Shown one piece after another: positions 1,723 to 16,720 of a stretch of DNA of 16,878 nucleotides (positions are counted from its first letter, which is position 1; the number at the start of each line of letters is the position of its first letter). Below the pieces are notes generated by a model. The model was not told the DNA's origin and made no database searches. It saw only the letters and a list, made by a program, of their open reading frames with translations. The DNA is taken from assembly GCA_039812445.1 (NCBI GenBank), contig JBDIAM010000037.1, positions 1 through 16,878 on the forward strand, in the 5' to 3' direction. This DNA is from Piscicoccus intestinalis. GTDB lineage: Bacteria; Actinomycetota; Actinomycetes; Actinomycetales; Dermatophilaceae. A program made the translations under genes and the position numbers.

Positions 1723-2832
1723 CTATCGGCTCGGGGTGAGCCGGCCCGCCATCTCCGGTCCCCCGGTGTCGGCCCGCACGGCGATCTGGCCGCGCGCGTT
1801 GACCGCCACGGCGTCGGTGAGGGTCCAGCCGGCGGGCAGGTTCACGGTGCGCCGCGTGAGGTCGACCATCCGCCCGGACTGCCAGGCCACCGCGCGGGCT
1901 CCGCGCTGCCCGACGACGACGCCGGCGTCGTTGACGCCCCGCGGCCGCAGGTTCGTCGCGCCCTTGAGCGTGACCGGGTTCGCGCTCGTCGAGAGCCAGG
2001 CCGCCGTGCCGCGGGACCCGCCGGGCGTCTCCGGCACGCCGACGCGCCCCACGAGGTAGCGGCCGTTCGGGGAGATTCCGTCGACGGCACTGGATCTCGG
2101 GGCACGCACCGGCGTCACGCCGGAGGCGGTCAGCACGACCCCGCGCGGAAAGGTCCCCGTCGAGGGCTGGCTCGGCCGGTGCGCGATGCCGACGGCGCGG
2201 CCGGCCTGCGAGATGCCGGTGATGTCGTAGGTGGCGGTCAACGATGTGGGCACCGAGACGACCCGTCCGTTCGCGCCGTAGAAGGGCGTCGACGACTTCA
2301 CACTGTCGGCCGCGCCCGCGTAGACCGCGCTGTCGTTCACCGCGCCGACCCGCACCTGGTAGTTCGCGCCGGGCACCTCCACACGCTCGCGCAGGCTCGT
2401 CCCGACGCCCCAGACGTAGAAGAACGGGCTGGGGCTGGGCGGACCGCCGACGACCCGACCGGCCGGCCCGATCGCCGTCGCCCGGAACTGGGAGGCGGAG
2501 CCGTCCGCCGAAGCGTCGAGCCACTGCCCGTCGCGGCCGTTGCCGACGAACGGCAACGGATCGCCGGACTCCGGCTCCACGTTGCCCGCCACCCACCCGG
2601 AGTCGGCGATCCCGACCGGGTGCGACGCGAGGCCGTTGCCGCTGCCGTCGGGCAGCAGCGACGGCGCCACGAGCGTGAACGTGTAGCCACCCGGCAGGCG
2701 GGCTGCGGCTGGAGCGTTCGCGCCGGCTGGGTCGACGCGGGGTGTGGCCGCGGCTCCCGCGGTCGAGGTCGCGAGCGCGCACACGCCCGCGGCGAGGGCG
2801 GCGGACAGGCGGGCACCAGGGTGCTGGATCAT
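1723..2832 (-). CDS. Secreted HAF-repeat family protein, function unknown
   Basis: Start MIQHPGARLSAALAAGVCALATSTAGAAA has signal-peptide character. Repeated units VNDAGVVVGQRGARAVAWQSGRMVDL, ISPNGRYLVGRVG...AAWL, ISQAGRAVGIA and VNARGQIAV resemble the HAF extracellular repeat (iNdxGqvvG...hAflW). The ORF-track start at 2895 is probably too far upstream. Plus ORFs 1393..2934 and 2244..2678 are Arg-rich shadows. Confidence 0.55.
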   Translation of the reverse strand: MIQHPGARLSAALAAGVCALATSTAGAAATPRVDPAGANAPAAARLPGGYTFTLVAPSLLPDGSGNGLASHPVGIADSGWVAGNVEPESGDPLPFVGNGRDGQWLDASADGSASQFRATAIGPAGRVVGGPPSPSPFFYVWGVGTSLRERVEVPGANYQVRVGAVNDSAVYAGAADSVKSSTPFYGANGRVVSVPTSLTATYDITGISQAGRAVGIAHRPSQPSTGTFPRGVVLTASGVTPVRAPRSSAVDGISPNGRYLVGRVGVPETPGGSRGTAAWLSTSANPVTLKGATNLRPRGVNDAGVVVGQRGARAVAWQSGRMVDLTRRTVNLPAGWTLTDAVAVNARGQIAVRADTGGPEMAGRLTPSR

Positions 2833-3083
2833 GCGTGGCTCCTGTGGTTCGTCGGCCGGCGAGCGACCGGTCAGGAGACCGGTTTCGGCCTCCATGACCT
2901 CGGAGCGCGCTCGAACGCCCGTGATACCCCGTGATGGACGGACCCGCCCACGCCCGCCTCACGTCGCCGGCCGGCGAAGGCACGGCGAAGGCAGGTCGCG
3001 GGGACAGGAGACCAACGTCCCGCGCTGGACGGGCTGCTCCCAAACGCCAGCGGGAGCGGGAGACGGGCTGGAAGACTGCGCGC

Positions 3084-4862
3084 ATGGCGCGCGAATTCGA
3101 AAAAGTAGCTGTGGTAGGGGTCGGCACGATCGGCGCGGGCATCGTCGAGATCTTCGCCCGGTCGGGCCGCGACGTCATCGCGGTCGCTCTCAACGACGAG
3201 AAGGCCGAGCGCGGAAAGTACCTGCTGGAGCGCTCGACCCAGGCCGCAGTCGACGGCGACAAGATGGCGGCCGCCGACCGCGAGGCAACGCTGAGCCGGG
3301 TCACCATCACCACCGACATCACGCAGGTGGCGCAGGCCGACCTCGTCATCGAGGCGGTCAGCGAGACCATCGAGGCCAAGCGCAAGGTCGTCGGCCAGCT
3401 CGAGGTGATCATCTCCGACGACGCGGTGCTCGCGACGAACACCTCCAGCCACTCGGTCACCGACATCGCCGCGGCCATGCAGTTGCCGGGCCGCGTCATC
3501 GGCACGCACTTCTTCCCGCCGATCCCGGTCATGCGGCTCGTGGAGATCGTGCGCACCGTGATGACGGATCCGCCGGTCATCGACGAGGTCGTCGAACTCA
3601 TGCGCTCCCTCGACAAGGACCCGATCGTCGTCGAGGATCGCGCCGGATACATCGCCGACGCGCTCGTGCTCGGCTACCTCAACCACGCCGTCGAGATGTA
3701 CGAGGCGAAGTACGCCACCCGCGAGGACATCGATGCCGCGATGAAGCTCGGCTGCGGCCTGCCCCGCGGCCCGCTGGAGCTGCTCGACCTCATCGGCCTG
3801 GACACCGCCTACTCGGTGCTCGACACCATGCACAAGGCGAGCGGCAACCCGCTGCACGCACCCCGGCCGATCCTCAAGCAGATGGTCACCGCGGGCCTGC
3901 TCGGGCGCAAGAGCGGGCGCGGCTTCTACAGCTACGAGCAGCCCGACTCCGCCAAGGTCGTGCCCGACAAGCTGACGCCGTCGGCCGAGGTCTCCGGGGA
4001 GAACACCCGCACGATCGAGAAGGTCGGGGTCGTCGGCAACGGCACGATGGCCATGGGCATCGTCGAGGTCTTCGCCAAGGCCGGCTACCCCGTGACGTTC
4101 GTCGCCCGTTCGCAGGAGAAGGCGGACCGCTCGCTCGGCAAGCTCACCGCCTCCCTCGACAAGGCCGTGGGCCGCGGCAAGATGACGCAGGAGGGCCGCG
4201 ACGCCGCGCTCGGCCTGGTCACTGCGGCCTCCGCGCTGACCGACCTGGGTGACGTCGACATCGTCGTGGAGGCGATCGCCGAGGACCTCGCCGTCAAGCA
4301 GGACACGTTCGCCCGGCTCGACGAGATCTGCAAGCCCGGCGCGATCCTGGCCACGACGACCTCCTCGCTGCCGGTCATCAAGTGCGCGGTCGCCACGTCG
4401 CGTCCGCAGGACGTCATCGGCATGCACTTCTTCAACCCGGCCCAGGTCATGAAGCTCGTCGAGGTCGTCTCGACGGTCTCCACGGCCGACGACGTCACCG
4501 CCACCGTCGCGCAGCTGTGCGCGAGCATCAAGAAGCACCCGGTGTTCTGCGCCGACGTCTCCGGCTTCATCGTCAACGCCCTGTTGTTCCCCTACCTCAA
4601 CGACGCGGTGACGATGCTGGCCTCGCAGTACGCCACGATCGACGAGATCGACCTGGCGATGAAGGCCGGCTGCGGCTACCCGATGGGCCCGTTCGAGCTG
4701 CTCGACGTCGTCGGGCTCGACGTGTCGCTGGCGATCCAGCAGGAGCTGTTCACCGAGTTCCGCCAGCCCGCGTTCGCGCCCGCGCCGCTGCTGGAGTACC
4801 TCGTGCAGGCCGGTTTCCTCGGCCGCAAGACCGGCCGCGGGTTCCACAACTACGCGCGCTGA
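3084..4862 (+). CDS. Tandem-duplicated 3-hydroxyacyl-CoA (3-hydroxybutyryl-CoA) dehydrogenase, two complete HADH units fused
   Basis: Two N-terminal Rossmann starts (KVAVVGVGTIGAGI at residue ~8 and KVGVVGNGTMAMGI at ~306). Each is followed by NTSS/TTSS and HFF(N/P)P...VMKLVEVV motifs and a C-terminal dimerisation segment (GRKSGRGFYSY / GRKTGRGFHNY). RBS-like GGAAGA upstream of ATG 3084. Confidence 0.9.
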   Translation: MAREFEKVAVVGVGTIGAGIVEIFARSGRDVIAVALNDEKAERGKYLLERSTQAAVDGDKMAAADREATLSRVTITTDITQVAQADLVIEAVSETIEAKRKVVGQLEVIISDDAVLATNTSSHSVTDIAAAMQLPGRVIGTHFFPPIPVMRLVEIVRTVMTDPPVIDEVVELMRSLDKDPIVVEDRAGYIADALVLGYLNHAVEMYEAKYATREDIDAAMKLGCGLPRGPLELLDLIGLDTAYSVLDTMHKASGNPLHAPRPILKQMVTAGLLGRKSGRGFYSYEQPDSAKVVPDKLTPSAEVSGENTRTIEKVGVVGNGTMAMGIVEVFAKAGYPVTFVARSQEKADRSLGKLTASLDKAVGRGKMTQEGRDAALGLVTAASALTDLGDVDIVVEAIAEDLAVKQDTFARLDEICKPGAILATTTSSLPVIKCAVATSRPQDVIGMHFFNPAQVMKLVEVVSTVSTADDVTATVAQLCASIKKHPVFCADVSGFIVNALLFPYLNDAVTMLASQYATIDEIDLAMKAGCGYPMGPFELLDVVGLDVSLAIQQELFTEFRQPAFAPAPLLEYLVQAGFLGRKTGRGFHNYAR

Positions 4863-8393: not shown

Positions 8394-9827
8394 ATGACGA
8401 ATCACCGTGAACTTCACGACATCTCGCGCGGGGCCGCGCAGTGCACGGTGGTCCCGCCGTTCCTGCTGCAGCGCCTGGCGCGCTCCGGAGACGGGCCGGC
8501 CGCCACCGTGGCCCGCGACACCCTGCGTCTGGAGCACACGCTGCGGGTGCGGCGCGAGGCGCGCTCGATGCGCCAGCCACGATCGACGGGCGGCCCCGTG
8601 CCGGGTCGGGAGCCCGCCGCCGGCGGCGAGCCGCAGAACGAGCGCGTCGACGAGCCGGTCGAGGGGCCGCTCGAGGGGCGAGGCGACGAGCGGGGCGATG
8701 CTCGAGGCGGTGACGCCCGCGACGGGAGCGGGGAACCGGGGCCGCCCGGTCAGGGGTTCGTGCCCGACCGGCTGCAGCGCCACCCCAGGCTCCGGGAGCA
8801 TCGTCGCGTCGAACCGCCGCGCGGGCTGGCGCCCGGCGAGCCGCCACAGGAGGCGGTGACCGCGACCCCCGACCGGGCGGTCCACGACGCCGAGCACGGC
8901 ACCGATCTGCCCGGCGTGCTGCGCCGCGACGAGGGCGCCGAGCCGCACGCCGACGAGTCCGTCAACGAGGCCTACGACGGGCTCGGCCACACGTGGTCGC
9001 TGTTCCACGACGCGTACGGGCGCAACTCCCTCGACGACGCCGGGCTCAAGCTCGTCGCGTCCGTGCACTTCGCGAAGGACTACGACAACGCGTTCTGGGA
9101 CGGCGAACAGATGGTCTTCGGCGACGGCGACGGCGAGGTGTTCGGCTCGTTCACCGACTGCCTCGACGTCATCGGCCACGAGCTCGCGCACGGGTTCACC
9201 CAGTACACGGCGGGATTCGTCTATGTCGGGCAGTCCGGGGCGCTCAACGAGCACGTCTCCGACGTGTTCGGCGTGCTCACCGTGCAGCGCGTCGAGGGGC
9301 AGATCGCCGACCAGGCCGACTGGCTCGTCGGCAAGGACCTGTTCCTGCCGGGCGTGCAGGGCGTCGCGCTGCGGTCGATGAAGGCGCCCGGCACCGCGTA
9401 CGACGACCCGCGCCTGGGCAAAGACCCGCAGCCCGCGCACATGGACGACTACGAACAGCTGCCGCACGACGAGGCCAACGACAACGGCGGGGTGCACATC
9501 AACTCCGGCATCCCCAACCACGCCTTCTACCTGGCCGCCACCACCCTCGGCGGCAACGCCTGGGAGGCCCCCGGCCAGATCTGGTACGACGTCATGACCA
9601 CCGGCGGCCTGCCCAAAGACGCCGACTTCGCGGCCTTCGCCGCCGCCACCCTCGCGGCCGCCGGCGCCCGTTACGGCGAGGGCAGCGCCGAGCAGGAGGC
9701 GGTCCGGGCGGGCTGGGACGGAGTCGGTGTGGTCGCCGCCGCCTCCCCCGTGCACCTGACCCGGCCCCGGCCCGACGCGCGGGCGGCCGCCCGGGGGCCG
9801 CGGCGCCTGCCCGATGCCCGAAGGTGA
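8394..9827 (+). CDS. Protealysin-like thermolysin-family (M4) zinc metalloprotease, intracellular type with short PPL-motif propeptide
   Basis: HExxH plus downstream Glu (VIGHELAHGFTQYTAGFVYVGQSGALNEHVSDVFG). Other M4 blocks: DNAFWDGEQMVFGDGDG, GGVHINSGIPNHAFY, C-terminal VRAGWDGVGV. No signal peptide. N-terminal CTVVPPFLLQRL resembles the conserved PPL motif of protealysin-like propeptides. An Asp/Glu/Gly/Arg low-complexity linker of roughly 60 residues (PAAGGEPQNERVDEPVEGPLEGRGDERGDARGGDARDGSGEP) sits between propeptide and catalytic domain. Stop overlaps nei start by 14 nt. Confidence 0.9.
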   Translation: MTNHRELHDISRGAAQCTVVPPFLLQRLARSGDGPAATVARDTLRLEHTLRVRREARSMRQPRSTGGPVPGREPAAGGEPQNERVDEPVEGPLEGRGDERGDARGGDARDGSGEPGPPGQGFVPDRLQRHPRLREHRRVEPPRGLAPGEPPQEAVTATPDRAVHDAEHGTDLPGVLRRDEGAEPHADESVNEAYDGLGHTWSLFHDAYGRNSLDDAGLKLVASVHFAKDYDNAFWDGEQMVFGDGDGEVFGSFTDCLDVIGHELAHGFTQYTAGFVYVGQSGALNEHVSDVFGVLTVQRVEGQIADQADWLVGKDLFLPGVQGVALRSMKAPGTAYDDPRLGKDPQPAHMDDYEQLPHDEANDNGGVHINSGIPNHAFYLAATTLGGNAWEAPGQIWYDVMTTGGLPKDADFAAFAAATLAAAGARYGEGSAEQEAVRAGWDGVGVVAAASPVHLTRPRPDARAAARGPRRLPDARR

Positions 9828-10755
9828 CACCGTCGCGTGGACCGCGGCCCGGCTCCAGGCCGCCCTCGGCGGCGCGACCCTGACCCGGGCCGAGTTGCGC
9901 TGGCCGTCGCTCGCGGGAGCCGACCTCGTGGGGGCCAGGACCGTGCGGGTGGTCGCGCGCGGCAAGCACCTGCTGCACCGCCTCGACCTGCGCGGCCAGG
10001 CCCTCACCCTGCACTCGCACCTGCGGATGGACGGCACGTGGCGGGTGCGACCCGCACAGGAGAGTGTGCGGTGGGACCATCGGCTGCGCGCCGTGCTCGG
10101 CACCGCCGACGCGACCGCGCTGGGGCGCAGCCTCGGCATGCTCGACCTCGTCGCCACCGCCGACGAGGATCGGCTCGTCGGCCATCTCGGGCCCGACATC
10201 CTCGCCCGTGCCTGGCAGGCGGGCGAACCGCCCGGGCGCGACATCGCGATGCGCCGGCTGTCACGAGACGACCGGCCGCTCGCGGAGGCGCTGCTCGATC
10301 AACGGGTGCTGGCCGGGCTCGGCACCTTCTGGGTCAGCGAGGGCTGCTTCGCGGAGCGGCTGAACCCGTGGCGGACCGCCGCGCAGGTGCCGACCGACGA
10401 CGTGGCGGCGCTCCTGGACTGGGCCCGGCCACGGATGCTGCGGTCGGCCCGCACCGGCGCGCAGTCGGTCACCGGGCTCGCCCGCCGCGACGCCCTGGGG
10501 GCCGTGCACGCGCTCTCGGGGCGTCCGTGCCGCCGCTGCGGACGCCCCGTTCGGGTCGCGCTCGTCGGCGCGGCCCCGCGAGAGCGCACGATCTTCTACT
10601 GCCCGGCCTGCCAGGGCGGGATCGCGCCCACCGACGACGGCCGGCCGCAGGCACCCCTGGGGGCCACGGGATCCACTCGTCGCTCCGGTGGCGACGACGG
10701 TCCCGGCAGGGCTCAGGTGTACAGGGGCCGGTCCGGGTCGGCGGGCTCGTCCTGA
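9814..10755 (+). CDS. nei: Fpg/Nei-family DNA glycosylase, endonuclease VIII-like (Nei)
   Basis: Starts MPEGDTV (catalytic Pro2/Glu3). GKHLLHRLD...LTLHSHLRMDGTWRV, LGPDIL, LLDQRVLAGLGTFWVSEGCF and a C-terminal C4 zinc finger (CRRCGRPV...FYCPACQ) align along E. coli Nei. The low-complexity C-terminal tail of about 40 aa overlaps the convergent gene by 43 nt. Confidence 0.85.
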   Translation: MPEGDTVAWTAARLQAALGGATLTRAELRWPSLAGADLVGARTVRVVARGKHLLHRLDLRGQALTLHSHLRMDGTWRVRPAQESVRWDHRLRAVLGTADATALGRSLGMLDLVATADEDRLVGHLGPDILARAWQAGEPPGRDIAMRRLSRDDRPLAEALLDQRVLAGLGTFWVSEGCFAERLNPWRTAAQVPTDDVAALLDWARPRMLRSARTGAQSVTGLARRDALGAVHALSGRPCRRCGRPVRVALVGAAPRERTIFYCPACQGGIAPTDDGRPQAPLGATGSTRRSGGDDGPGRAQVYRGRSGSAGSS

Positions 10756-11225
10756 CGCGCCGAACTCTCGCCGCCGTCGGGCGCGACGTCCTCGCCGTAC
10801 AGCACCTGACCGTCCTCGGCGACGACGACGAGCGTCTCCGCGCCGCCGTCGACGATCTTGTCCGCGATGAGGGCCGCCTCCGGCTCCGGAACCCGCACCC
10901 CGGCGCGTTCCCAGCCCCGCGTCAGTTCCTCGAGGATGTCCGAGGGGGCCCGGCCGGCCGCGCCCCCGGCCACCGCCGCCAACGTGTCGACGTAGGCCCG
11001 CACCCCTTCCGGCCCGACCTCGTCCGCGAAGCCGGAGTTCACCGTGATGCGCGACGTGCGGGTCGTCTCCTCGTTCCCCCGCCGGCCCGCCAGGTCCGGG
11101 TTGTTGATGTCGACCTCGGCGGTGTCACTGGAATGGACCTTGTGATCGTCCTGCCGATCGGCGTGCCGAACCTCGTGCCGATCGTCCCGTCGATCGTCGT
11201 GACGGCCATCTGCGGCGGTGCTCAT
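10713..11225 (-). CDS. Hypothetical protein with His/Asp/Arg-rich disordered N-terminus and conserved-looking C-terminal domain
   Basis: ATG 11225 preceded by AGGAGA 6 nt upstream. 170 aa: MSTAADGRHDDRRDDRHEVRHADRQDDHKVHSSDTAEVDINNPD... then ...GVRAYVDTLAAVAGG...ILEELTRGWERAGVRVPEPEAALIADKIVDGGAETLVVVAEDGQVLYGE. Strong GC3 bias. The ORF-track start at 11870 is an upstream read-through. Family not recognised. Confidence 0.6.
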   Translation of the reverse strand: MSTAADGRHDDRRDDRHEVRHADRQDDHKVHSSDTAEVDINNPDLAGRRGNEETTRTSRITVNSGFADEVGPEGVRAYVDTLAAVAGGAAGRAPSDILEELTRGWERAGVRVPEPEAALIADKIVDGGAETLVVVAEDGQVLYGEDVAPDGGESSARQDEPADPDRPLYT

Positions 11226-11403
11226 ATCAGTCTCCTGGTCAGGCGGGAAACGGTCTGCGAAACGCCCGCCATCACTCGACGAGCACGGCGCGGCGCGCTC
11301 TGTCGGCGGGTCGACCCGAGTACATCTACCCGTTGCGGCCGAACGCAATCCCGGCGCCGGCAGCGGGTCCTGCCTAGGGTAGGGGCGCCGACCGGCCACC
11401 CGC

Positions 11404-11436
11404 CACGAAAGAGGCACGAAAGAGGCACGAGAGAGG
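11404..11436 (+). repeat. Three tandem copies of an 11-bp SD-containing unit (CACGAAAGAGG x2, CACGAGAGAGG) immediately upstream of the photolyase ATG
   Basis: Direct reading: cacgaaagagg cacgaaagagg cacgagagagg accgccgag ATG. Each unit carries an AAGAGG/AGAGG Shine-Dalgarno-like core. The third copy sits 9 nt before ATG 11446. Confidence 0.8.
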
Positions 11437-11445
11437 ACCGCCGAG

Positions 11446-12813
11446 ATGAGCACGATCCTGTGGCTGCGCCGGGACCTGCGCCGCGACGACCTGCCGGCGC
11501 TGGTCGCCGCGCACGAGGCGGCGGGCGACGGCCGGGTGCTGCCGGTGTTCGTGCTCGACCCGAGGCTGTGGAACGGCGCGGGCGAGGCGCGCCGCGCGGC
11601 GCTGCGAGACGCCCTGCAGCGCGCCCAGGAGGAGTACGACGGCGCGCTCGTCGCGCGTCGCGGCGACCCCGCGCAGGTGCTGGCGCACCTCGCGACCCAG
11701 ACCGGCGCCACCAGCGTGCACGTCAGCGGCGAATCGACCCCCTTCGGCCGCCGCCGCGGGGAGGCCGTGCACGCAGCCCTCGCCGCCTTGCCCGGAGGCG
11801 GGGTGCCGGTGGTCGCGACCGGCACCCCGTACGCCGTCTCCCCCGGCCGCATCCGCACCCAGGCCGGCACGCCCTACCAGGTGTTCACCCCGTTCGCGCG
11901 GGCCTGGCGCGCCCACGGCCACCCCGGCCCGGCGCGGCCGCCCGCGGCCGTGCGGTGGCTCACCGGCGTCCCCAGCGACGACCTGCCCGGCACGGCCGAC
12001 GCGTCACCGGCTCCCGGCCCGGACCCCCGGCAGGCGTGGCGTGACTTTCTCGACGAGGGACTCGGCGACTACGACACCGCCCGCGACCGCCCCGATCTCG
12101 ACGCCACCTCGCGGGTCTCCGAGCACCTGAAGTTCGGGGCGCTGCACCCGCGCACTCTGCTCGCCGACGTCGCCGCGCACCCCGCGGCCGGGAGCACCGC
12201 GGCCCGCCGGTTCGTCGACCAGCTCATCTGGCGCGAGTTCTACGCCGACGTGCTGTGGCACCGCCCCGAATCCGCCTGGCACGACCTGCGCCCGCTCGGC
12301 GACATCGGCACCGACCCCGACGCCGACGAGCAGACCGCGCACCGCTGGGACGCCTGGTGCGCCGGCCGCACCGGCTACCCCTACGTCGACGCCGGGATGC
12401 GCCAACTGCTCGCGCAGGGCTGGATGCACAACCGGCTGCGCATGGTCACTGCCTCCTTCCTCGTCAAGGACCTGCACATCCGCTGGCAGCACGGCGCCCG
12501 GTTCTTCCTCGCGCACCTGCGCGACGGCGATCTCGCCTCGAACAACCACGGCTGGCAGTGGGCGGCCGGCACCGGCACCGACGCCGCGCCCTACGTGCGG
12601 GTCTTCAACCCGATCACCCAGGGGAGGCGGTTCGACCCCGGCGGCGACTACGTGCGCCGCCACGTGCCCGAACTCGCGCACGTCGCCGGGGCCGCCGCCC
12701 ACGAGCCGTGGAACGCCCCCGACGGGTACACCCACGGATACCCGCAGCGGATCGTCGACCACGCGGCCGAGCGCCGCGAGGCCCTGCGTCGCTTCCACGA
12801 GGTGTCGCCCTGA
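11446..12813 (+). CDS. phrB: Deoxyribodipyrimidine photolyase (class I CPD photolyase/cryptochrome family)
   Basis: 455 aa. N-terminal photolyase alpha/beta domain (ILWLRRDLRRDDLPAL) and FAD-binding domain with WREFY, GYPYVDAGMRQLLAQGWMHNRLRMVTASFLVKDL and NNHGWQWAAGTGTDAAPYVRVFNP signature blocks. Confidence 0.95.
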   Translation: MSTILWLRRDLRRDDLPALVAAHEAAGDGRVLPVFVLDPRLWNGAGEARRAALRDALQRAQEEYDGALVARRGDPAQVLAHLATQTGATSVHVSGESTPFGRRRGEAVHAALAALPGGGVPVVATGTPYAVSPGRIRTQAGTPYQVFTPFARAWRAHGHPGPARPPAAVRWLTGVPSDDLPGTADASPAPGPDPRQAWRDFLDEGLGDYDTARDRPDLDATSRVSEHLKFGALHPRTLLADVAAHPAAGSTAARRFVDQLIWREFYADVLWHRPESAWHDLRPLGDIGTDPDADEQTAHRWDAWCAGRTGYPYVDAGMRQLLAQGWMHNRLRMVTASFLVKDLHIRWQHGARFFLAHLRDGDLASNNHGWQWAAGTGTDAAPYVRVFNPITQGRRFDPGGDYVRRHVPELAHVAGAAAHEPWNAPDGYTHGYPQRIVDHAAERREALRRFHEVSP

Positions 12814-12950
12814 GCCCGGTCCGATGACCCGCACCGTCCTCGGGCGGCTCGCGGGGGCGTTGAGCGCGCCGCGGCGGCCCGGCCGGGTGAGACTGAGCGC
12901 TAGGCCGATCCCGCCCGAGCCGAGCGAACACACCGACAGCAGGAGGACCA

Positions 12951-14255
12951 ATGGACACCGACGTCGTCATCGCCGGAGCCGGGCTCGCCGGCCTGACCTG
13001 CGCCCGGCACCTCGCGGGAGCCGGGCTCGACGTGCGCGTCCTCGAGGCGGGCGACGACGTCGGCGGCCGCGTGCGCACCGACGTCGTCGACGGCTTCCGC
13101 TGCGACCGCGGGTTCCAGCTGCTCAACCCCGCCTACCCCGCCGTGCGCGACGAGGTCGACGTGCGCCGGCTCGGGCTCGGCACGTTCGAGCGCGGCGTCG
13201 CGGTGCGCCGCGACGACGGTCTGACGCACCTGACCGTCAGCCCGCGGGCGCTGGCCCACGCGGCGCCCGCGACCGTCTCCTCGATCACCTCCCTCGTGCC
13301 GGGCCCCTACCTGCGCCCGCAGTCGGTGCGCGAGCTCGCCGCGCTGACGCGGTGGGCGGCGCCGGCGCTGGGCCCGGTCTCGCGGCTGCTGCGGCAACGG
13401 GACACGACGCTGCGCGAGAGCTGGGACGACGCCGGGTTCCGCGGCCGCTTCCGCGCCGAGGTCGTCGAGCCCTTCCTCGCCGGGGTCGTGCTCGAGCGGG
13501 ACGGCTCGACGTCGGCCAATTTCGCCCGACTGCTCGTGCGCGCCTTCGCGCTGGGCACCCCGGGGGTGCCCGCCCAGGGCATGTCCGCGCTGCCGCACCA
13601 GCTCGCGGCGCCGGTCCTTGAGTCGGTGGAGTTGGGCCGGCGCGTCGAGGCCGTCACCCGCGAGACCGGCGGGGTGCGCGTCGACACCGACTCCGGGCCG
13701 GTGCGGGCGCGGGCGGCGGTCGTCGCGTGCGACCCGGCGACCGCCGGCGAACTGCTCGACATCGAGGTGCCGGCCGGCCGGGGCCTGACGACGTGGTGGT
13801 TCGCGACCGACTCCGACCCCGGCGACCGGGCGATCCTGCATCTCGACGGCCGCTCGCAGCCCGGGCCGCTGGTCAACGCGGCGGTGATGACCAACGCCGC
13901 CCCGTCGTACGCCCCACCCGGATGGCACCTCGTGCAGGCCAGCGCCCTGACCGCCGACGCCGACCTGCCGACCGAGGCGGTGCTCGCGCAGGTCGGTGCG
14001 GTGCTCGGCGTGCCGACCCGGTCGTGGCAGCTGGTGACCCGCCACGACATCGCCTACGCCCTGCCGAGCCAGCCGCCGCCGCTGCGGGTGCGCCGCGACG
14101 TCGCCCTCGGCGGGGGCGTCTACGCGTGCGGCGACCACCGCGACACCGCCTCCATCCAGGGCGCGATCGTCTCCGGACGGCGCACGGCGCGCGCGGTGGC
14201 GCGTCGCCTGGCCCCGGCGGCCCCGGCTGACTCAGCGGCCCGCGGCCGAGCATGA
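12951..14255 (+). CDS. NAD(P)/FAD-dependent oxidoreductase of the flavin amine-oxidase superfamily (protoporphyrinogen-oxidase / phytoene-desaturase-like)
   Basis: AGGAGGA RBS then MDTDVVIAGAGLAGLTCARHLAGAGLDVRVLEAGDDVGGRVRT (dinucleotide-binding GxGxxG...E...GGR). C-terminal VYACGDHRDTASIQGAIVSGRRTA is the second FAD-contact motif typical of the amine oxidase/PPO/CrtI fold. 434 aa. Stop overlaps the next start (ATGA). Confidence 0.8.
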   Translation: MDTDVVIAGAGLAGLTCARHLAGAGLDVRVLEAGDDVGGRVRTDVVDGFRCDRGFQLLNPAYPAVRDEVDVRRLGLGTFERGVAVRRDDGLTHLTVSPRALAHAAPATVSSITSLVPGPYLRPQSVRELAALTRWAAPALGPVSRLLRQRDTTLRESWDDAGFRGRFRAEVVEPFLAGVVLERDGSTSANFARLLVRAFALGTPGVPAQGMSALPHQLAAPVLESVELGRRVEAVTRETGGVRVDTDSGPVRARAAVVACDPATAGELLDIEVPAGRGLTTWWFATDSDPGDRAILHLDGRSQPGPLVNAAVMTNAAPSYAPPGWHLVQASALTADADLPTEAVLAQVGAVLGVPTRSWQLVTRHDIAYALPSQPPPLRVRRDVALGGGVYACGDHRDTASIQGAIVSGRRTARAVARRLAPAAPADSAARGRA

Positions 14256-14974
14256 TCAATCCGGTCACCGAGCTGCGGGCCTTCGTCACGGCGGCCCTGT
14301 TCTCCCCCGTTCCGCGCGATCACGCCCAGACCGACGCGGCGTTCCGGCGCCGCCGGGTCGTGGCTGCCGCCACCCTCGTCGTCGGCGGCGTGTTGCTCTT
14401 CGTGAGCCTGCGGGTGCCGCCGGGTGACCCGGCGTTCTACGCCTGGACGCTGGCCCTCGCCGCCGTGTGGACCGTCGGCGCGTTCGCCTCCGGGCCGCTG
14501 CATCTGGGCCAGGCCTGGACCCGCACCGGGGCCGTCGCGCGGCCCGTCGTGCAGTCCGCGGCGCTCGCGGCCCTGCTCGTCGCGCTCTTCCTCGTCGGTG
14601 CCGTCGTCGTCGCGGGCGTCCCCGTGCTGCGCGGCCCCGTCGACGGGCTCCTCGACCACGCCCGGTTCGGGTCGCTGCCGGTCGTCGCGGTCGTCACCGC
14701 GGTCAACGGCATCGGCGAGGAGTTGTACTTCCGCGGCGTCCTCTTCGCCGCGATCGGCCGTCGACACGCGGTCGCGGTCTCGACCGTGCTGTATATGCTC
14801 GTCACGCTCGCCAGCGGGGTGCCGCTGCTCGTGCTCGCGGCCGGCGTGCTCGGCGTCGTCACCGGCCTGCAACGCCGCGTCACCGGCGGCGTGCTCGGCC
14901 CGATCCTCGTGCACGTCGCGTGGTCGATGTCGATGCTCTTCCTGCTTCCTCCCGTTCTCGACACCCTGAGGTGA
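14252..14974 (+). CDS. CPBP-family intramembrane metalloprotease (CAAX protease/Abi-like) membrane protein
   Basis: Multiple TM helices. Motif 1 EELYFRG (EExxxR) and a downstream ILVHVAWS histidine motif. Translationally coupled on both sides (ATGA at 14252; TGA-AC-ATG at 14972-14979). Confidence 0.7.
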   Translation: MINPVTELRAFVTAALFSPVPRDHAQTDAAFRRRRVVAAATLVVGGVLLFVSLRVPPGDPAFYAWTLALAAVWTVGAFASGPLHLGQAWTRTGAVARPVVQSAALAALLVALFLVGAVVVAGVPVLRGPVDGLLDHARFGSLPVVAVVTAVNGIGEELYFRGVLFAAIGRRHAVAVSTVLYMLVTLASGVPLLVLAAGVLGVVTGLQRRVTGGVLGPILVHVAWSMSMLFLLPPVLDTLR

Positions 14975-14976
14975 AC

Positions 14977-16392
14977 ATGACCGTCTCGTCCACCGACGCG
15001 CAGGCCCGCACGGCGCTGGTCACCGGCGCCACCGGCTACATCGGCGGGCTGCTCGTCCCCCGGCTCCTGGAGGCGGGGTGGCGGGTGCGCGTGCTGACCC
15101 GCGACGCCGCGAAGATCGCCGACCTGCCGTGGGGCTCGCGCGTGGAGGCGGTCGAGGCCGACGCGAGCGACGCCGACGGGCTGCGTTCGGCGATGACCGG
15201 GGTCGACGTCGCCTGGTACCTGCTGCACTCGATGGGTGCCGGCGGCGACTTCGCGCGCCGTGACCGGGAGCTGGCGGGCACGTTCGGCGCCGCGGCCCGC
15301 GAGGCCGGGGTCGCCCGCATCGTCTACCTCGGCGGGCTGCACCCCCGCGGCGAGCTGTCGGCGCACCTGGCCTCGCGGGTCGAGGTCGGCGAGGTGCTCA
15401 TGGCCTCGGGAGTGCCGACGGCCTGCCTGCAGGCCGCGGTCGTGCTCGGAGACGGGTCGATCAGCTTCGAGATGCTGCGGCACCTCACCGAGCGGCTCCC
15501 GGCGATGATCGCGCCGAAGTGGCTGGGCAACCTCATCCAGCCGATCGCGGTCGACGACGTGCTGCACTACCTCGTCGCGGCGGCCGATCTGCCGCCGGAG
15601 GTCAACCGCACGTTCGACATCGGCGGGCCCGACGTGCTCAGTTACGCCGACATGATCCGCCGGTTCGCGCAGGTCACCGGGCTGCGGCCGCGTCTCGTCG
15701 TCACGGTGCCGGTGCTGACTCCCGGGCTCGCGAGCCACTGGATCGGCCTCGTCACGCCCGTCGACACCGGCGTCGCCAAGCCCCTCGTCGGCAGCCTCGT
15801 GCACGAGGTGGTGTGCCGCGAACGCGACCTCGACGGGCTCGTCGGCGCGCCGCCCGGCGGGGTCACCGGCTTCGACGAGGCGGTCCGGCGCGCGATGCGC
15901 ACCGCGTCGCCGCAGCGGGGGCCGCGCACGCTGGCGTTGACCGGCGCGATGACGACGGCCGCGGCGGTCGCCGGGTCGATCGCCTCCGACCCCGGCTCCG
16001 CCTGGTACCGCGGCATCGACAAGCCCGCCTGGCAGCCTCCGGCCCTTGCGTTTCCGGTGGTGTGGACGGCGCTGTACGCCGACATCGCCGGTACCAGCGC
16101 CTCGGTCATCCGCACGCTGGAGGACTCCGGCCGCGAGTCGGGGGCGCGTCGGTTCACCACGGCCCTCGGGGTGAACCTCGTGCTCAACGCCGCGTGGAGC
16201 GCGCTGTTCTTCCGGGCGCACCGCCCCGACGTCGCCACGCTCGGAGCCGGGCTGCTCGCCGCGAGCAGCGCCGACCTCGCCCGACGCGCGGGAGCCGCCG
16301 GGCGCGGGCATGCCGGGTGGCTGGCTCCGTACGCCGCGTGGTGCGCGTTCGCGACGGTGTTGTCCGCCGAGATCTGGCGGCGCAACCAGTAG
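14977..16392 (+). CDS. Fusion protein: N-terminal NAD(P)-binding NmrA/atypical-SDR-like domain plus C-terminal TspO/MBR (translocator protein, tryptophan-rich sensory protein) domain
   Basis: GAGGTG RBS then MTVSSTDAQARTALVTGATGYIGGLLVPRLLEAGWRVRVLTRD (TGxxGxxG Rossmann). From about residue 310: WYRGIDKPAWQPPALAFPVVWTALYADIAG...LGVNLVLNAAWSALFFRAHRPDVATLGAGLL...WLAPYAAWCAFATVLSAEIWRRN, the TspO/MBR five-helix signature (W..L.KP.W.PP..F..VW..LY...LN..W...FF...P...W..FA..L). The ORF-track start at 14467 is a shadow over the CPBP gene. Confidence 0.8.
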   Translation: MTVSSTDAQARTALVTGATGYIGGLLVPRLLEAGWRVRVLTRDAAKIADLPWGSRVEAVEADASDADGLRSAMTGVDVAWYLLHSMGAGGDFARRDRELAGTFGAAAREAGVARIVYLGGLHPRGELSAHLASRVEVGEVLMASGVPTACLQAAVVLGDGSISFEMLRHLTERLPAMIAPKWLGNLIQPIAVDDVLHYLVAAADLPPEVNRTFDIGGPDVLSYADMIRRFAQVTGLRPRLVVTVPVLTPGLASHWIGLVTPVDTGVAKPLVGSLVHEVVCRERDLDGLVGAPPGGVTGFDEAVRRAMRTASPQRGPRTLALTGAMTTAAAVAGSIASDPGSAWYRGIDKPAWQPPALAFPVVWTALYADIAGTSASVIRTLEDSGRESGARRFTTALGVNLVLNAAWSALFFRAHRPDVATLGAGLLAASSADLARRAGAAGRGHAGWLAPYAAWCAFATVLSAEIWRRNQ

Positions 16393-16610
16393 GGCCGGCG
16401 CCTGGTGGGCTGCCTGCGCGGGCGCGCGGCGCCGCGCGGAGGCAGCGTCTGCGCCGACGATCCCGCCTCACGGGACGGCTGTCTCGACGGTCGGGACGGG
16501 ACCGCCCGGCTGCCGCCGAACCACCTCCGCGGACGCGGCTCAGCGGCACCCCGGCGGTCCAGTCGGACAGCACAGGCTCCCGTGCGAAACGGAGGCCCTG
16601 GGGAGGGGAT

Positions 16611-16720
16611 CGCCGAGGCGCCGGGCGAGGGCGCCGCAGAGGCGCCGACCCAGCCTCGCGGAGCCGCCGACCCAGCCTCGCCGAGCCGCCGACCGAGCCT
16701 CGCCGAGGCGCCGGGCGAGG
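16611..16720. repeat. GC-rich imperfect tandem repeat (about 21-bp period, GCCGACCCAGCCTCGCSGAGC x3) flanked by an exact 20-bp direct repeat CGCCGAGGCGCCGGGCGAGG
   Basis: Units at about 16644-16664, 16665-16686 and 16687-16708. The 20-mer occurs at 16611-16630 and 16701-16720. The region lies in a 360-bp convergent intergenic region between the SDR-TspO stop (16392) and the era stop (16753). Confidence 0.7.

Follow-up and report, generated by a model that had tools for sequence, protein, structure and literature searches.

A fusion of an atypical short-chain dehydrogenase/reductase domain with TspO in a photolyase-linked gene cluster of Piscicoccus intestinalis, a candidate photoprotection module

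Introduction

The subject of this study is a cluster of four genes in Piscicoccus intestinalis (Actinomycetota; contig JBDIAM010000037.1), located at positions 11446-16392 of an analysed stretch of 16,878 nt (hereafter, the window). The genes encode a photolyase (phr), an amine-oxidase-fold flavoprotein (AO), a CPBP-family membrane protein and a protein in which a short-chain dehydrogenase/reductase (SDR) domain is fused to a TspO domain (SDR::TspO, the double colon marking the fusion). A preliminary description, made from the sequence before any database search, had seen in them a candidate light or photo-oxidative-stress module linked to tetrapyrroles.

Photolyase-centred photoprotection clusters and the linkage of phrB with tspO are already known. 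The phrB-tspO-mmpL2 ‘photolyase locus’ of Mycobacterium kansasii is induced ∼30-fold by light, and a MarR-type regulator controls photochromogenicity in this species (PMC9861118). That locus resembles the present one in being actinobacterial and in having a photolyase gene and a TspO-family gene adjacent and co-directional. Compared by description only, its TspO differs in being a plain TspO-family member, with no SDR fusion mentioned (PMC9861118). Its partner is an MmpL transporter, and neither a CPBP protein nor a flavoprotein is reported.

CarH is a B12-dependent repressor of carotenoid genes. Relatives of the window cluster recall the CarH/LitR regulons in being headed by a regulator with MerR and B12-binding domains, in the company of photolyase, SDR, AO-fold flavoprotein, DUF1365 and cyclopropane fatty-acid (CFA) synthase-like methyltransferase genes. 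The window differs from these regulons in having no such regulator, and its AO and the flavoprotein of the classical cluster, known here from Terrabacter lapilli (locus L003), are of different subfamilies. In Pseudomonas, a light-inducible cluster of class II LitR consists of phrB, an SDR gene, a flavin adenine dinucleotide (FAD) oxidoreductase gene and ufaM (PMC9758184). Its SDR is annotated, by description, as a short-chain dehydrogenase, whereas that of the window is a YbjT/NDUFA9-like atypical SDR, and CPBP and TspO are not among the genes named (PMC9758184).

A further parallel comes from the singlet-oxygen responses of Rhodobacter. The RpoE (sigmaE-ChrR) regulon of R. sphaeroides includes phrA, cfaS and RSP_1087-1091, among them the SDR gene RSP_1087, and in R. 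capsulatus singlet oxygen induces the crtIB-tspO operon (PMC7074977). The likeness lies in photolyase, SDR, lipid-modifying enzymes and TspO, all of which photo-oxidative stress induces, and in the tie of TspO to carotenoid genes, as in one relative of the window (L087). Unlike the Rhodobacter systems, the loci annotated here hold no extracytoplasmic function (ECF) sigma/anti-sigma gene, their hosts are non-phototrophic high-GC Gram-positive bacteria, and TspO is fused to a reductase-like domain. For the TSPO of Pseudomonas, a STRING analysis predicted partners that include PhrB and an NAD-dependent epimerase/dehydratase, the latter read as a cell-wall enzyme (PMC4237140).

Full-text term searches of the 2021 TSPO partner review and of the 2014 Pseudomonas TSPO paper gave no natural TspO fusion. 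No literature pairing CPBP with photolyase was found, the function of DUF2867 was not the subject of any title or abstract found, and a light RNA-seq paper on freshwater Actinobacteria makes no mention of the cluster genes. The SDR::TspO architecture, its CPBP partner, its derivation from the YbjT/DUF2867 family and its CarH/MarR wiring in Actinomycetota were thus not found described in the searchable literature. Two systems of phototrophs offer a looser comparison. Ycf39/HCF244 and Hlip join an NmrA-like atypical SDR to a small tetrapyrrole-binding membrane protein in photoprotection, and BCM1/2, CaaX-protease-like proteins of the CPBP family, serve in chlorophyll delivery and homeostasis and in the regulation of tetrapyrrole metabolism. 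The hosts of the window-type clusters are non-phototrophic, and this likeness is one of analogy, not of established orthology.

Results

A four-gene cluster ending in an SDR-TspO fusion gene

All positions are given in the numbering of the window, which has a G+C content of 74%. The cluster is made up of the following genes and domains, the four genes being assigned by Pfam:

11446-12813, plus strand: phr, predicted class I cyclobutane pyrimidine dimer (CPD) photolyase, 455 aa
12951-14255, plus strand: AO, amine-oxidase-fold FAD flavoprotein, 434 aa
14252-14974, plus strand: CPBP/Rce1-like polytopic membrane protein, 240 aa
14977-16392, plus strand: SDR::TspO fusion gene, 471 aa
14977-15906, plus strand: atypical SDR domain of the fusion (YbjT/NDUFA9/NmrA-like, NAD(P)H-binding), aa 1-310
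15919-16392, plus strand: TspO/MBR domain of the fusion, aa 315-471, five transmembrane (TM) helices, with the stop codon

The four co-directional genes of the preliminary description were confirmed as open reading frames (ORFs) on the plus strand, and Pfam agrees with the domain assignments that it had made for all four proteins. The tight coupling that it had claimed for the last three genes is likewise present. The TGA stop codon of AO (14253-14255) overlaps the ATG of the CPBP gene (14252-14254) as ATGA, and the CPBP TGA (14972-14974) is followed by AC and then by the ATG of the fusion gene at 14977 (TGA-N2-ATG), with a Shine-Dalgarno-like GAGGTG just 5' of this start codon. The spacing between phr and AO is 137 nt, versus -4 and +2 nt at the other two junctions, and no terminator-like hairpin was found within this gap. 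The G+C content at third codon positions (GC3) was scored for the phr, AO and CPBP ORFs and is of coding type (0.94-0.95). The locus is a real four-gene cluster with three tightly coupled genes after the photolyase.

A complete TspO domain with a conserved signature

Pfam assigns the C-terminal ∼150 aa of the fourth protein to TspO/MBR, as had been proposed: TspO_MBR (PF03073) matches aa 327-468 over the complete profile (positions 6-145 of 145; E = 9.9e-32; 110.1 bits versus a cutoff of 24). The NCBIfam TspO equivalog model gives 69 bits against a cutoff of 180, and the domain is therefore not an equivalog of the alphaproteobacterial type. Its sequence relatives of known structure are mouse TSPO (2mgy, 3.5e-10), BcTSPO (4ryi, 1e-9) and RsTSPO (4uc1). 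An AlphaFold2 model of the fusion (predicted local distance difference test, pLDDT, 91.3; predicted TM-score, pTM, 0.80) contains five TspO helices, at residues 315-336, 358-383, 387-413, 417-441 and 443-469.

Among the TspO signature residues, W343, W352, W363, N404, W407, W455 and F458 are invariant in 104 homologs, P354 and F411 are invariant or nearly so, and all of them align with mouse TSPO and BcTSPO. The signature motifs are kept, with WxPP in loop 1, NxxW..FF in TM3 and W..FA(T) in TM5, and the window domain thus shares with BcTSPO and RsTSPO both its full length and the WxPP, NxxW and TM5 W/F-A-T residues. We take W352 (in WxPP) and W455 (in TM5) to be the equivalents of the BcTSPO tryptophans implicated in porphyrin degradation. 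Conservation of this signature suggests selection for canonical TspO ligand binding.

The orientation of bacterial TSPOs is variable or unsettled in the literature (PMC8243069). A positive-inside count made by hand on the TspO consensus (∼7 versus 8 basic residues) is uninformative in this respect. The fusion differs from BcTSPO and RsTSPO in its large cytoplasmic N-terminal domain, which would force TM1 to start at the cytoplasmic face; because this domain is followed by exactly five helices, the model implies an N-in/C-out topology.

An atypical SDR domain without the canonical triad

The N-terminal part of the fusion matches NAD_binding_10/NmrA (PF13460/PF05368) at aa 12-148 (4.2e-18). Its dinucleotide-binding motif T16-G17-A-T-G20-Y-I-G23 (TGxxGxxG) is invariant in the 104 homologs, as is R42 at the end of strand 2, which is read as an NADP-type residue. 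The position of the YxxxK motif reads H130-L-A-S133-R134; H130, S133 and R134 are invariant in the same set and are present in DUF2867-type orthologs too. This pattern fits an ‘atypical’ SDR. The redox activity proposed for the fusion in the preliminary description thus lost one of its expected marks, the canonical YxxxK.

The sequence relatives among solved structures are a bacterial complex-I NDUFA9-like subunit (9g83_P, 2.9e-11), KstA11, Gox2253 and NDUFA9. A Foldseek search with the SDR part of the model returned Gox2253, triphenylmethane reductase, NDUFA9, SimC7 and QOR2, with target-normalised TM-scores of 0.68-0.80. These five are atypical SDRs, which, we assume, have no YxxxK motif and either reduce planar hydrophobic acceptors or bind NADPH at the surface of a membrane. 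In fold and sequence, the solved proteins nearest to the SDR domain are NDUFA9/9g83_P, triphenylmethane reductase, QOR2 and SimC7. Their identity to it is only 18-23%, none is fused to TspO, and there is no complex I context here.

The fusion is a branch of the YbjT family

Without exception, the 120 best homologs (460-575 aa, mostly <510 aa; 61-98% identity) contain both domains. They come from Janibacter, Terrabacter, Intrasporangium, Luteipulveratus, Pedococcus, Humibacillus and other genera, and are named ‘tryptophan-rich sensory protein’ (NCBI) or ‘YbjT (DUF2867 family)/tryptophan-rich sensory protein’ (JGI). A search of 1.84 billion representatives gave 17,862 relatives. Most of these matches are ∼480-510 aa long and align with residues 1-310 only; about 8 of the top 150 clusters at 50% identity are fused over the full length (42-55% identity), including clusters from Kocuria, Brevibacterium and Corynebacterium appendicis. 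Its recurrence in Janibacter, Terrabacter, Intrasporangium, Kocuria, Brevibacterium and Corynebacterium marks the fusion as real and not an artefact of assembly.

More distant SDR orthologs, from Kineococcus, Streptomyces, Kribbella and Curtobacterium (54-62% identity, 490-550 aa), have the YbjT architecture, NAD_binding_10 followed by DUF2867 (PF11066; 7e-40 and 3e-40 in the orthologs at L045 and L058). The N-terminal 310 aa of the fusion are orthologous to this family (COG0702), with the same 54-62% identity to its actinobacterial members and the HLxSR motif in common. The window protein differs in carrying a five-helix TspO domain for DUF2867 and in the coupling of its gene to CPBP; it has no PF11066 match, and TspO occupies that position. 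Intermediate orthologs, 306-395 aa long and 63-72% identical, end without a C-terminal domain, and an SRPBCC gene is often found directly upstream of them.

A neighbour-joining tree of the SDR domain (midpoint-rooted, without bootstrap values) places all CPBP-linked SDRs in one clade, in which the C-terminus is DUF2867 in 5 loci, nothing in 16 and TspO in 11. The 11 TspO-fused SDRs form a single subclade together with one unfused locus, L014. Within the CPBP-linked SDR lineage, TspO has thus taken the place of an ancestral C-terminal DUF2867. DUF2867 is, we assume, a Bet v 1/SRPBCC-like domain that binds hydrophobic ligands, and its replacement by TspO argues that the SDR works on, or with, a membrane-soluble ligand. 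The fusion and its CPBP partner had been put forward as an undescribed system. They remain unusual in the literature; in sequence databases the architecture is common, as one branch of the large YbjT (SDR + DUF2867) family.

Genomic neighbourhoods link the CPBP-SDR pair to photolyase

Gene neighbourhoods were compared in one genome per species, in which the window proteins were mapped by tblastn and ORFs were called and then clustered. This set comprises 80 loci, ∼74 of them with a called SDR gene, the window counted among them. CPBP adjoins SDR in 30 of the ∼74 loci, in several orders and orientations, a photolyase lies within three genes of SDR in 21, and a window-type AO is nearby in 6. The order PHR>CPBP>SDR::TspO is found in Terrabacter, Humibacillus, Nostocoides, Intrasporangium and Aeromicrobium, SDR>CPBP>PHR in Ornithinibacter-like metagenome-assembled genomes (MAGs), SDR>PHR in Streptomyces (L037) and PHR>SDR in Homoserinimonas (L073). 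Further arrangements are SDR>CPBP>AO, and CPBP>SDR followed by AO on the opposite strand. Kocuria has SDR::TspO>CPBP with a 4-nt gap, and C. appendicis a divergent CPBP/SDR pair. Orthologs of the window AO (47-52% identity) adjoin CPBP/SDR in L007, L019, L027, L028, L033 and L052, and also in L081, L085, L088 and L089.

The conserved core is therefore CPBP plus SDR, with photolyase, flavoprotein and TspO as frequent accessories. By this comparison, the pair is an old module of two genes in Actinomycetota that has repeatedly become part of photoprotection clusters. The complete order of the window, photolyase-AO-CPBP-SDR::TspO, which the preliminary description had singled out for a neighbourhood check, is kept in L081 (76% identity) and also in L089 (98% identity), which are independent relatives.

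CarH/LitR-like and MarR regulators head the relatives

A CarH/LitR-like regulator (MerR + B12-binding_2 + B12-binding) lies at most 7.3 kb from SDR in 19 of the ∼74 loci, including 7 of 10 fused ones, and genes for an AO-fold flavoprotein, DUF1365 and CFA synthase are frequent company in the clusters so headed. In Terrabacter lapilli (L003), an SRPBCC gene and CarH are divergent from AO-DUF1365-CMAS/CFA-synthase-PHR-CPBP-SDR::TspO; the best NCBIfam match of this MerR + B12-binding regulator is CarH (1.2e-37), below the cutoff. In Granulicoccus (L007), PHR is divergent from CarH-CPBP-SDR::TspO-AO, with an AO of the window type. In the MAG at L058, CarH is divergent from AO-DUF1365-CMAS-classic SDR-stand-alone TspO-SRPBCC-YbjT SDR, the unfused counterpart of the fusion cluster.

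The nearest relatives of the window (72-76% identity) have a MarR regulator instead. In L085 and L088, the chromosomal position of the window cluster is occupied by AO-CPBP-SDR::TspO with a divergent MarR. In L083, PHR is divergent from MarR-CPBP-SDR::TspO, beside Fur-catalase, and in L087 crtB(::Rieske::DUF5914)-crtI-like-NUDIX is divergent from MarR-PNPOx-like-CPBP-SDR::TspO. These MarRs are mutually orthologous, at 41-57% identity to that of L087. The crtB gene of L087 (64-2283, minus strand) encodes a 739-aa fusion of phytoene/squalene synthase, a Rieske [2Fe-2S] domain and DUF5914, and it adjoins a CrtI-like desaturase and an IPP-isomerase-like NUDIX gene (IPP, isopentenyl diphosphate).

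A palindrome, TTCGAT-N-ATCGAA, occurs 10 times in 90 loci at no more than one mismatch, and 9 of these occurrences are in regulatory regions of the same relatives. The 13-bp sites are:

L081, 6437
L083, 8220 and 9100
L085, 7755
L087, 4623
L088, 2270
L082, L084 and L086, further copies

The palindrome is likely the MarR operator for CPBP-SDR::TspO and, in L087, also for the divergent carotenoid genes. In L081, which has the four-gene order of the window and no adjacent MarR, it stands upstream of phr and implies co-regulation of all four genes there. It is presumably absent from L089, the 98%-identical twin of the window.

Neither the window nor any of the eleven loci annotated with Pfam (L081-L091) contains an ECF sigma/ChrR anti-sigma pair; in the remaining 80 loci, ORFs were clustered and only a few genes were scanned against Pfam. 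The analogy with sigmaE-ChrR regulons drawn in the preliminary description accordingly gives way to another wiring, in which the adjacent regulators are CarH/LitR (19 loci) or MarR (four close relatives). That the module commonly acts as an output of light-responsive regulators (CarH/LitR or a carotenoid-associated MarR), beside photolyase and genes for membrane-lipid protection, is well supported by gene neighbourhoods and by analogy with described systems. The light or photo-oxidative-stress module of the preliminary description stands in this part, through the CarH/LitR- and MarR-headed relatives, the L087 MarR divergent from crtB/crtI and the light induction of phrB-tspO in M. kansasii; what is missing is a regulator or operator in the window itself.

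The partner proteins

The phr product matches DNA_photolyase (PF00875, 4.7e-34) and FAD_binding_7 (PF03441, 1.8e-75). Its best solved relative is E. coli photolyase (1dnp, 5e-79, aa 4-450), followed by the A. nidulans enzyme (1tez/1owl). The NCBIfam deoxyribodipyrimidine photo-lyase model matches at 1.5e-92, with 311 bits, which does not reach the equivalog cutoff of 506. These matches place the phr product among the class I CPD photolyases.

AO matches Amino_oxidase (PF01593) over positions 1-442 of the 443 of the profile (1.1e-39). The amine-oxidase fold of the preliminary description was thus upheld; AO is, however, no ortholog of protoporphyrinogen oxidase (PPO) or CrtI, which it had named with the same fold. 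The PPO, CrtI and CrtD models match aa 3-67, the FAD motif, only (18-41 bits versus cutoffs of 98-640). A second candidate, the COG2907-like flavoprotein of the classical photolyase/DUF1365/CFA-synthase cluster, was also rejected, as only the FAD motif aligns with the Terrabacter protein of L003. The best NCBIfam match is hydroxysqualene dehydroxylase (HpnE-like, 1.5e-15), full-length and far below its cutoff, and the best solved relative is putrescine oxidase (1e-12, partial). AO belongs to an uncharacterised subfamily of the amine-oxidase fold.

The CPBP protein matches the Rce1-like family PF02517 (3e-13; 50.3 bits versus a cutoff of 22.4). No sequence match to any solved structure in the PDB was found, even at E = 10, and no paralogs were found in 1,229 ORFs from the first 80 genome loci and the window. 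The EExxxR motif is kept: of 30 orthologs, at least 97% have E155, E156 and R161. Motifs 2 and 3 were assigned by spacing only. The former reads Y181-x-x-x-T185 (Y in at least 97% and T in at least 85% of the orthologs) versus the canonical FxxxH, and the latter H221-x-x-W224-S225 (each in at least 97%) versus HxxxN/D. Because of YxxxT at motif 2 and HxxWS at motif 3, Rce1-type catalysis is doubtful, and so is the membrane protease of the preliminary description, one canonical catalytic histidine being apparently missing.

Regulatory sequence and surroundings of the cluster

The phr gene is preceded by one further feature:

11227-11445, no strand: intergenic region 5' of phr, divergent from a small minus-strand ORF

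It contains three 11-bp tandem repeats, CACGAAAGAGG, at 11404-11436 (Tandem Repeats Finder, TRF: period 11, 3.0 copies, 95% matches), which stop 9 nt before the phr start codon and have a Shine-Dalgarno-like AGAGG inside each copy. At the equivalent place 5' of phr, L081 has a different two-copy repeat, ACCCCACTCGAGAAC. The CACGAAAGAGG repeats may be stacked ribosome-binding sites or a regulator site. No sigma-70 consensus promoter was found upstream of phr, and no Rfam family or riboswitch in the window. No CarH (MerR + B12-binding), MarR or sigma/anti-sigma gene was found among the called ORFs of the 16.9-kb window. The operator of the relatives, GATGMTCGAATCAY, has no match in the window at up to 3 mismatches, and the best match to the MarR palindrome, TTCGATNATCGAA, at 987-999 with 3 mismatches, is at chance level. 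In an alignment of upstream regions, the operator emerged in L081 and L085, and nothing common to the window.

The small divergent ORF (10713-11226, minus strand, 171 aa) has no Pfam or NCBIfam match. Its N-terminus is of low complexity, acidic and basic, and is encoded by a 12-bp periodic repeat (11144-11201). Likened by position and size, a minus-strand ORF of 149-171 aa lies between nei and the cluster in L081, L085, L088 and L089.

Housekeeping genes upstream of the cluster encode an FAD oxidoreductase, an AlkB-like 2-oxoglutarate (2OG)-Fe(II) oxygenase, a duplicated 3-hydroxyacyl-CoA dehydrogenase, LeuA, a Band-7 protein, an M4 peptidase and a Nei/Fpg glycosylase. The dehydrogenase is a 643-aa protein (2931-4862, plus strand) with its 3HCDH_N + 3HCDH module in two tandem copies, each matched twice. 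The start of the Nei/Fpg gene has a 14-nt overlap with the M4 peptidase gene. A stretch of less than 12 kb contains three genes for DNA repair: the AlkB-like oxygenase (917-1678), Nei/Fpg (9814-10755) and the photolyase (11446-12813). A 390-aa ORF without a Pfam match (1723-2895, minus strand) overlaps a 513-aa ORF on the opposite strand (1393-2934); the former was accepted by the GC3-based gene caller and rejected by a stricter stop-to-stop GC3 filter.

Downstream, a spacer of ∼360 bp is followed by the C-terminus of an Era-like GTPase gene on the minus strand, convergent with the cluster. The spacer holds a 22-bp tandem repeat array (16610-16713; 4.6 copies, 82-91% matches), which is probably non-coding because its period is not a multiple of 3.

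Discussion

The best overall explanation, to which we give about an even chance (roughly 0.5), is a photoprotection module in which a photosensitiser captured by TspO is handled with the aid of the tethered NAD(P)H domain. The module would protect the membrane against photosensitised damage. The TspO domain would capture a hydrophobic membrane photosensitiser, most plausibly free protoporphyrin or another tetrapyrrole, and the tethered cytoplasmic NAD(P)H domain would reduce the ligand or its photo-oxidation product, or couple the process to the NADPH pool. Such a reduction could be akin to the hydride transfer onto planar hydrophobic acceptors by triphenylmethane reductase, QOR2 and SimC7; BLVRB is presumably a further structural relative doing such hydride transfer. 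The flavoprotein would be a partner oxidoreductase, CPBP a membrane partner or scaffold, and the photolyase would repair the accompanying UV lesions. We infer the tetrapyrrole link only from knowledge of TspO elsewhere, and protoporphyrin IX binding with light- and O2-dependent degradation would come to the domain as a family property.

Several observations weigh against this explanation. The TM1-TM2 loop caps the TspO ligand pocket. In the predicted topology this loop should face outward, and the NADPH site and the pocket should be on opposite sides of the membrane, an arrangement that speaks against a direct transfer of hydride into the pocket. The canonical Ser-Tyr-Lys triad is absent from the SDR domain (HxxxR at the YxxxK position; G or S at position 119), and NDUFA9, among its nearest solved relatives, presumably binds NADPH as a structural and not a catalytic cofactor. 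Since TspO can be swapped for DUF2867 or for nothing, the SDR substrate need not be a tetrapyrrole. Among the partners, CPBP appears to lack the motif-2 histidine, and AO is of a different subfamily from the flavoprotein of the classical light-regulated cluster. The light connection itself is frequent and not obligatory, as no light-related neighbours, phr included, were found at the CPBP-SDR::TspO loci of Kocuria and C. appendicis. The window has no CarH, no MarR and no copy of the operator of its relatives, and phr and marR appear to be alternatives at this chromosomal position (the window, L081 and L089 versus L085 and L088).

The main rival, which we consider possible and rather unlikely, is a membrane lipid or quinone redox module, still serving photo-oxidative protection. 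The SDR would then act on an isoprenoid, a quinone or a lipid-oxidation product, with menaquinone, a carotenoid or apocarotenoid, a furan or cyclopropane fatty-acid intermediate and a lipid aldehyde as candidate substrates. DUF2867, the separately encoded SRPBCC protein and TspO would serve interchangeably as carriers of hydrophobic ligands, and AO would be a desaturase or oxidase of the same pathway. This account makes ready sense of TspO at the DUF2867 position, of the SRPBCC gene so often directly upstream of the unfused SDR, and of neighbours that include lipid-modifying genes (CMAS/CFA synthase, DUF1365, classic SDR) as well as carotenoid genes. It is also consistent with the quinone reductase QOR2 and NDUFA9 as fold relatives of the SDR, NDUFA9 sitting, as we assume, near the quinone tunnel of complex I, and with HpnE as the sub-threshold best full-length NCBIfam match of AO. 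It sits poorly with the strict conservation of the tryptophan-rich TspO signature, W352 and W455 included, and there is no lipid or quinone biosynthesis gene in the window; the sequence assigns no substrate.

Two other explanations are less likely than the lipid/quinone module. The first, which we regard as highly doubtful, is a sensor or signalling device. The NmrA-like domain would respond to the NAD(P)H/NAD(P)+ ratio and TspO to porphyrin, oxygen or light damage, and CPBP would then cleave or sequester a membrane-bound regulator, by analogy with the proteolysis of ChrR in the singlet-oxygen response. The structural relatives of the SDR include NmrA-family and NDUFA9-like proteins, which typically bind dinucleotides without catalysing a reaction, and the missing canonical catalytic residues fit such a role. 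TspO in Rhodobacter has been described as a regulator of photosynthesis genes (PMC7074977), and the CPBP family is one of intramembrane proteases. The invariant H130, S133 and R134 with the NADP-type R42, on the other hand, suggest a conserved active site and not a relic, and this CPBP appears to be without the motif-2 histidine needed for Rce1-type catalysis. Moreover, the module lies downstream of CarH or MarR, as an apparent output and not an input, and no sigma/anti-sigma pair or membrane-tethered regulator stands beside it in L081-L091 or in the ten neighbour clusters whose representatives were inspected.

The other, that phr is a mere neighbour brought in by local rearrangement, without co-regulation, to a general membrane/redox housekeeping operon AO-CPBP-SDR::TspO, could draw on the 137-nt gap after phr, the marR found in its place in relatives, the Kocuria and C. 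appendicis pairs without a nearby photolyase or light regulator and the lack of an operator or regulator in the window, and is nevertheless very improbable given that photolyase proximity in 21 of ∼74 loci is far above chance for a single-copy gene and takes at least five forms (PHR>CPBP>SDR, SDR>CPBP>PHR, divergent PHR, SDR>PHR and PHR>SDR), that CarH-type regulators are near SDR in 19 loci, that no terminator-like site separates phr from AO, and that L081 has a MarR-type palindrome upstream of phr in the order phr-AO-CPBP-SDR::TspO.

The role of bacterial TspO is debated, with sensor, transporter and porphyrin-degrading enzyme all proposed. An SDR::TspO fusion that is paired with CPBP and often found under a B12 photoreceptor regulator offers a testable clue to TspO function on one polypeptide. 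The same context gives three poorly understood families, YbjT/DUF2867, this CPBP subfamily and this flavoprotein subfamily, a place in photoprotection, and it extends the proteobacterial ‘light regulon’ vocabulary of photolyase, CFA synthase and SDR to Actinomycetota, with different regulators. Even if the chemistry proves ordinary, the annotation of thousands of ‘tryptophan-rich sensory protein’ and ‘NAD(P)H-binding protein’ entries would be upgraded. A bolder proposal, and one we think quite unlikely, is that TspO is the membrane substrate-binding subunit of an NAD(P)H oxidoreductase (SDR + CPBP, with or without the flavoprotein) that, under the control of light-sensing regulators, renders photosensitising tetrapyrroles or the products of their oxidation harmless, with DUF2867 as the soluble equivalent of TspO and the orientation settled by the fusion, the N-terminus being cytoplasmic. 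If that were true, the fusion would serve as a ‘Rosetta stone’ for what TspO does in bacteria, which has long been in dispute.

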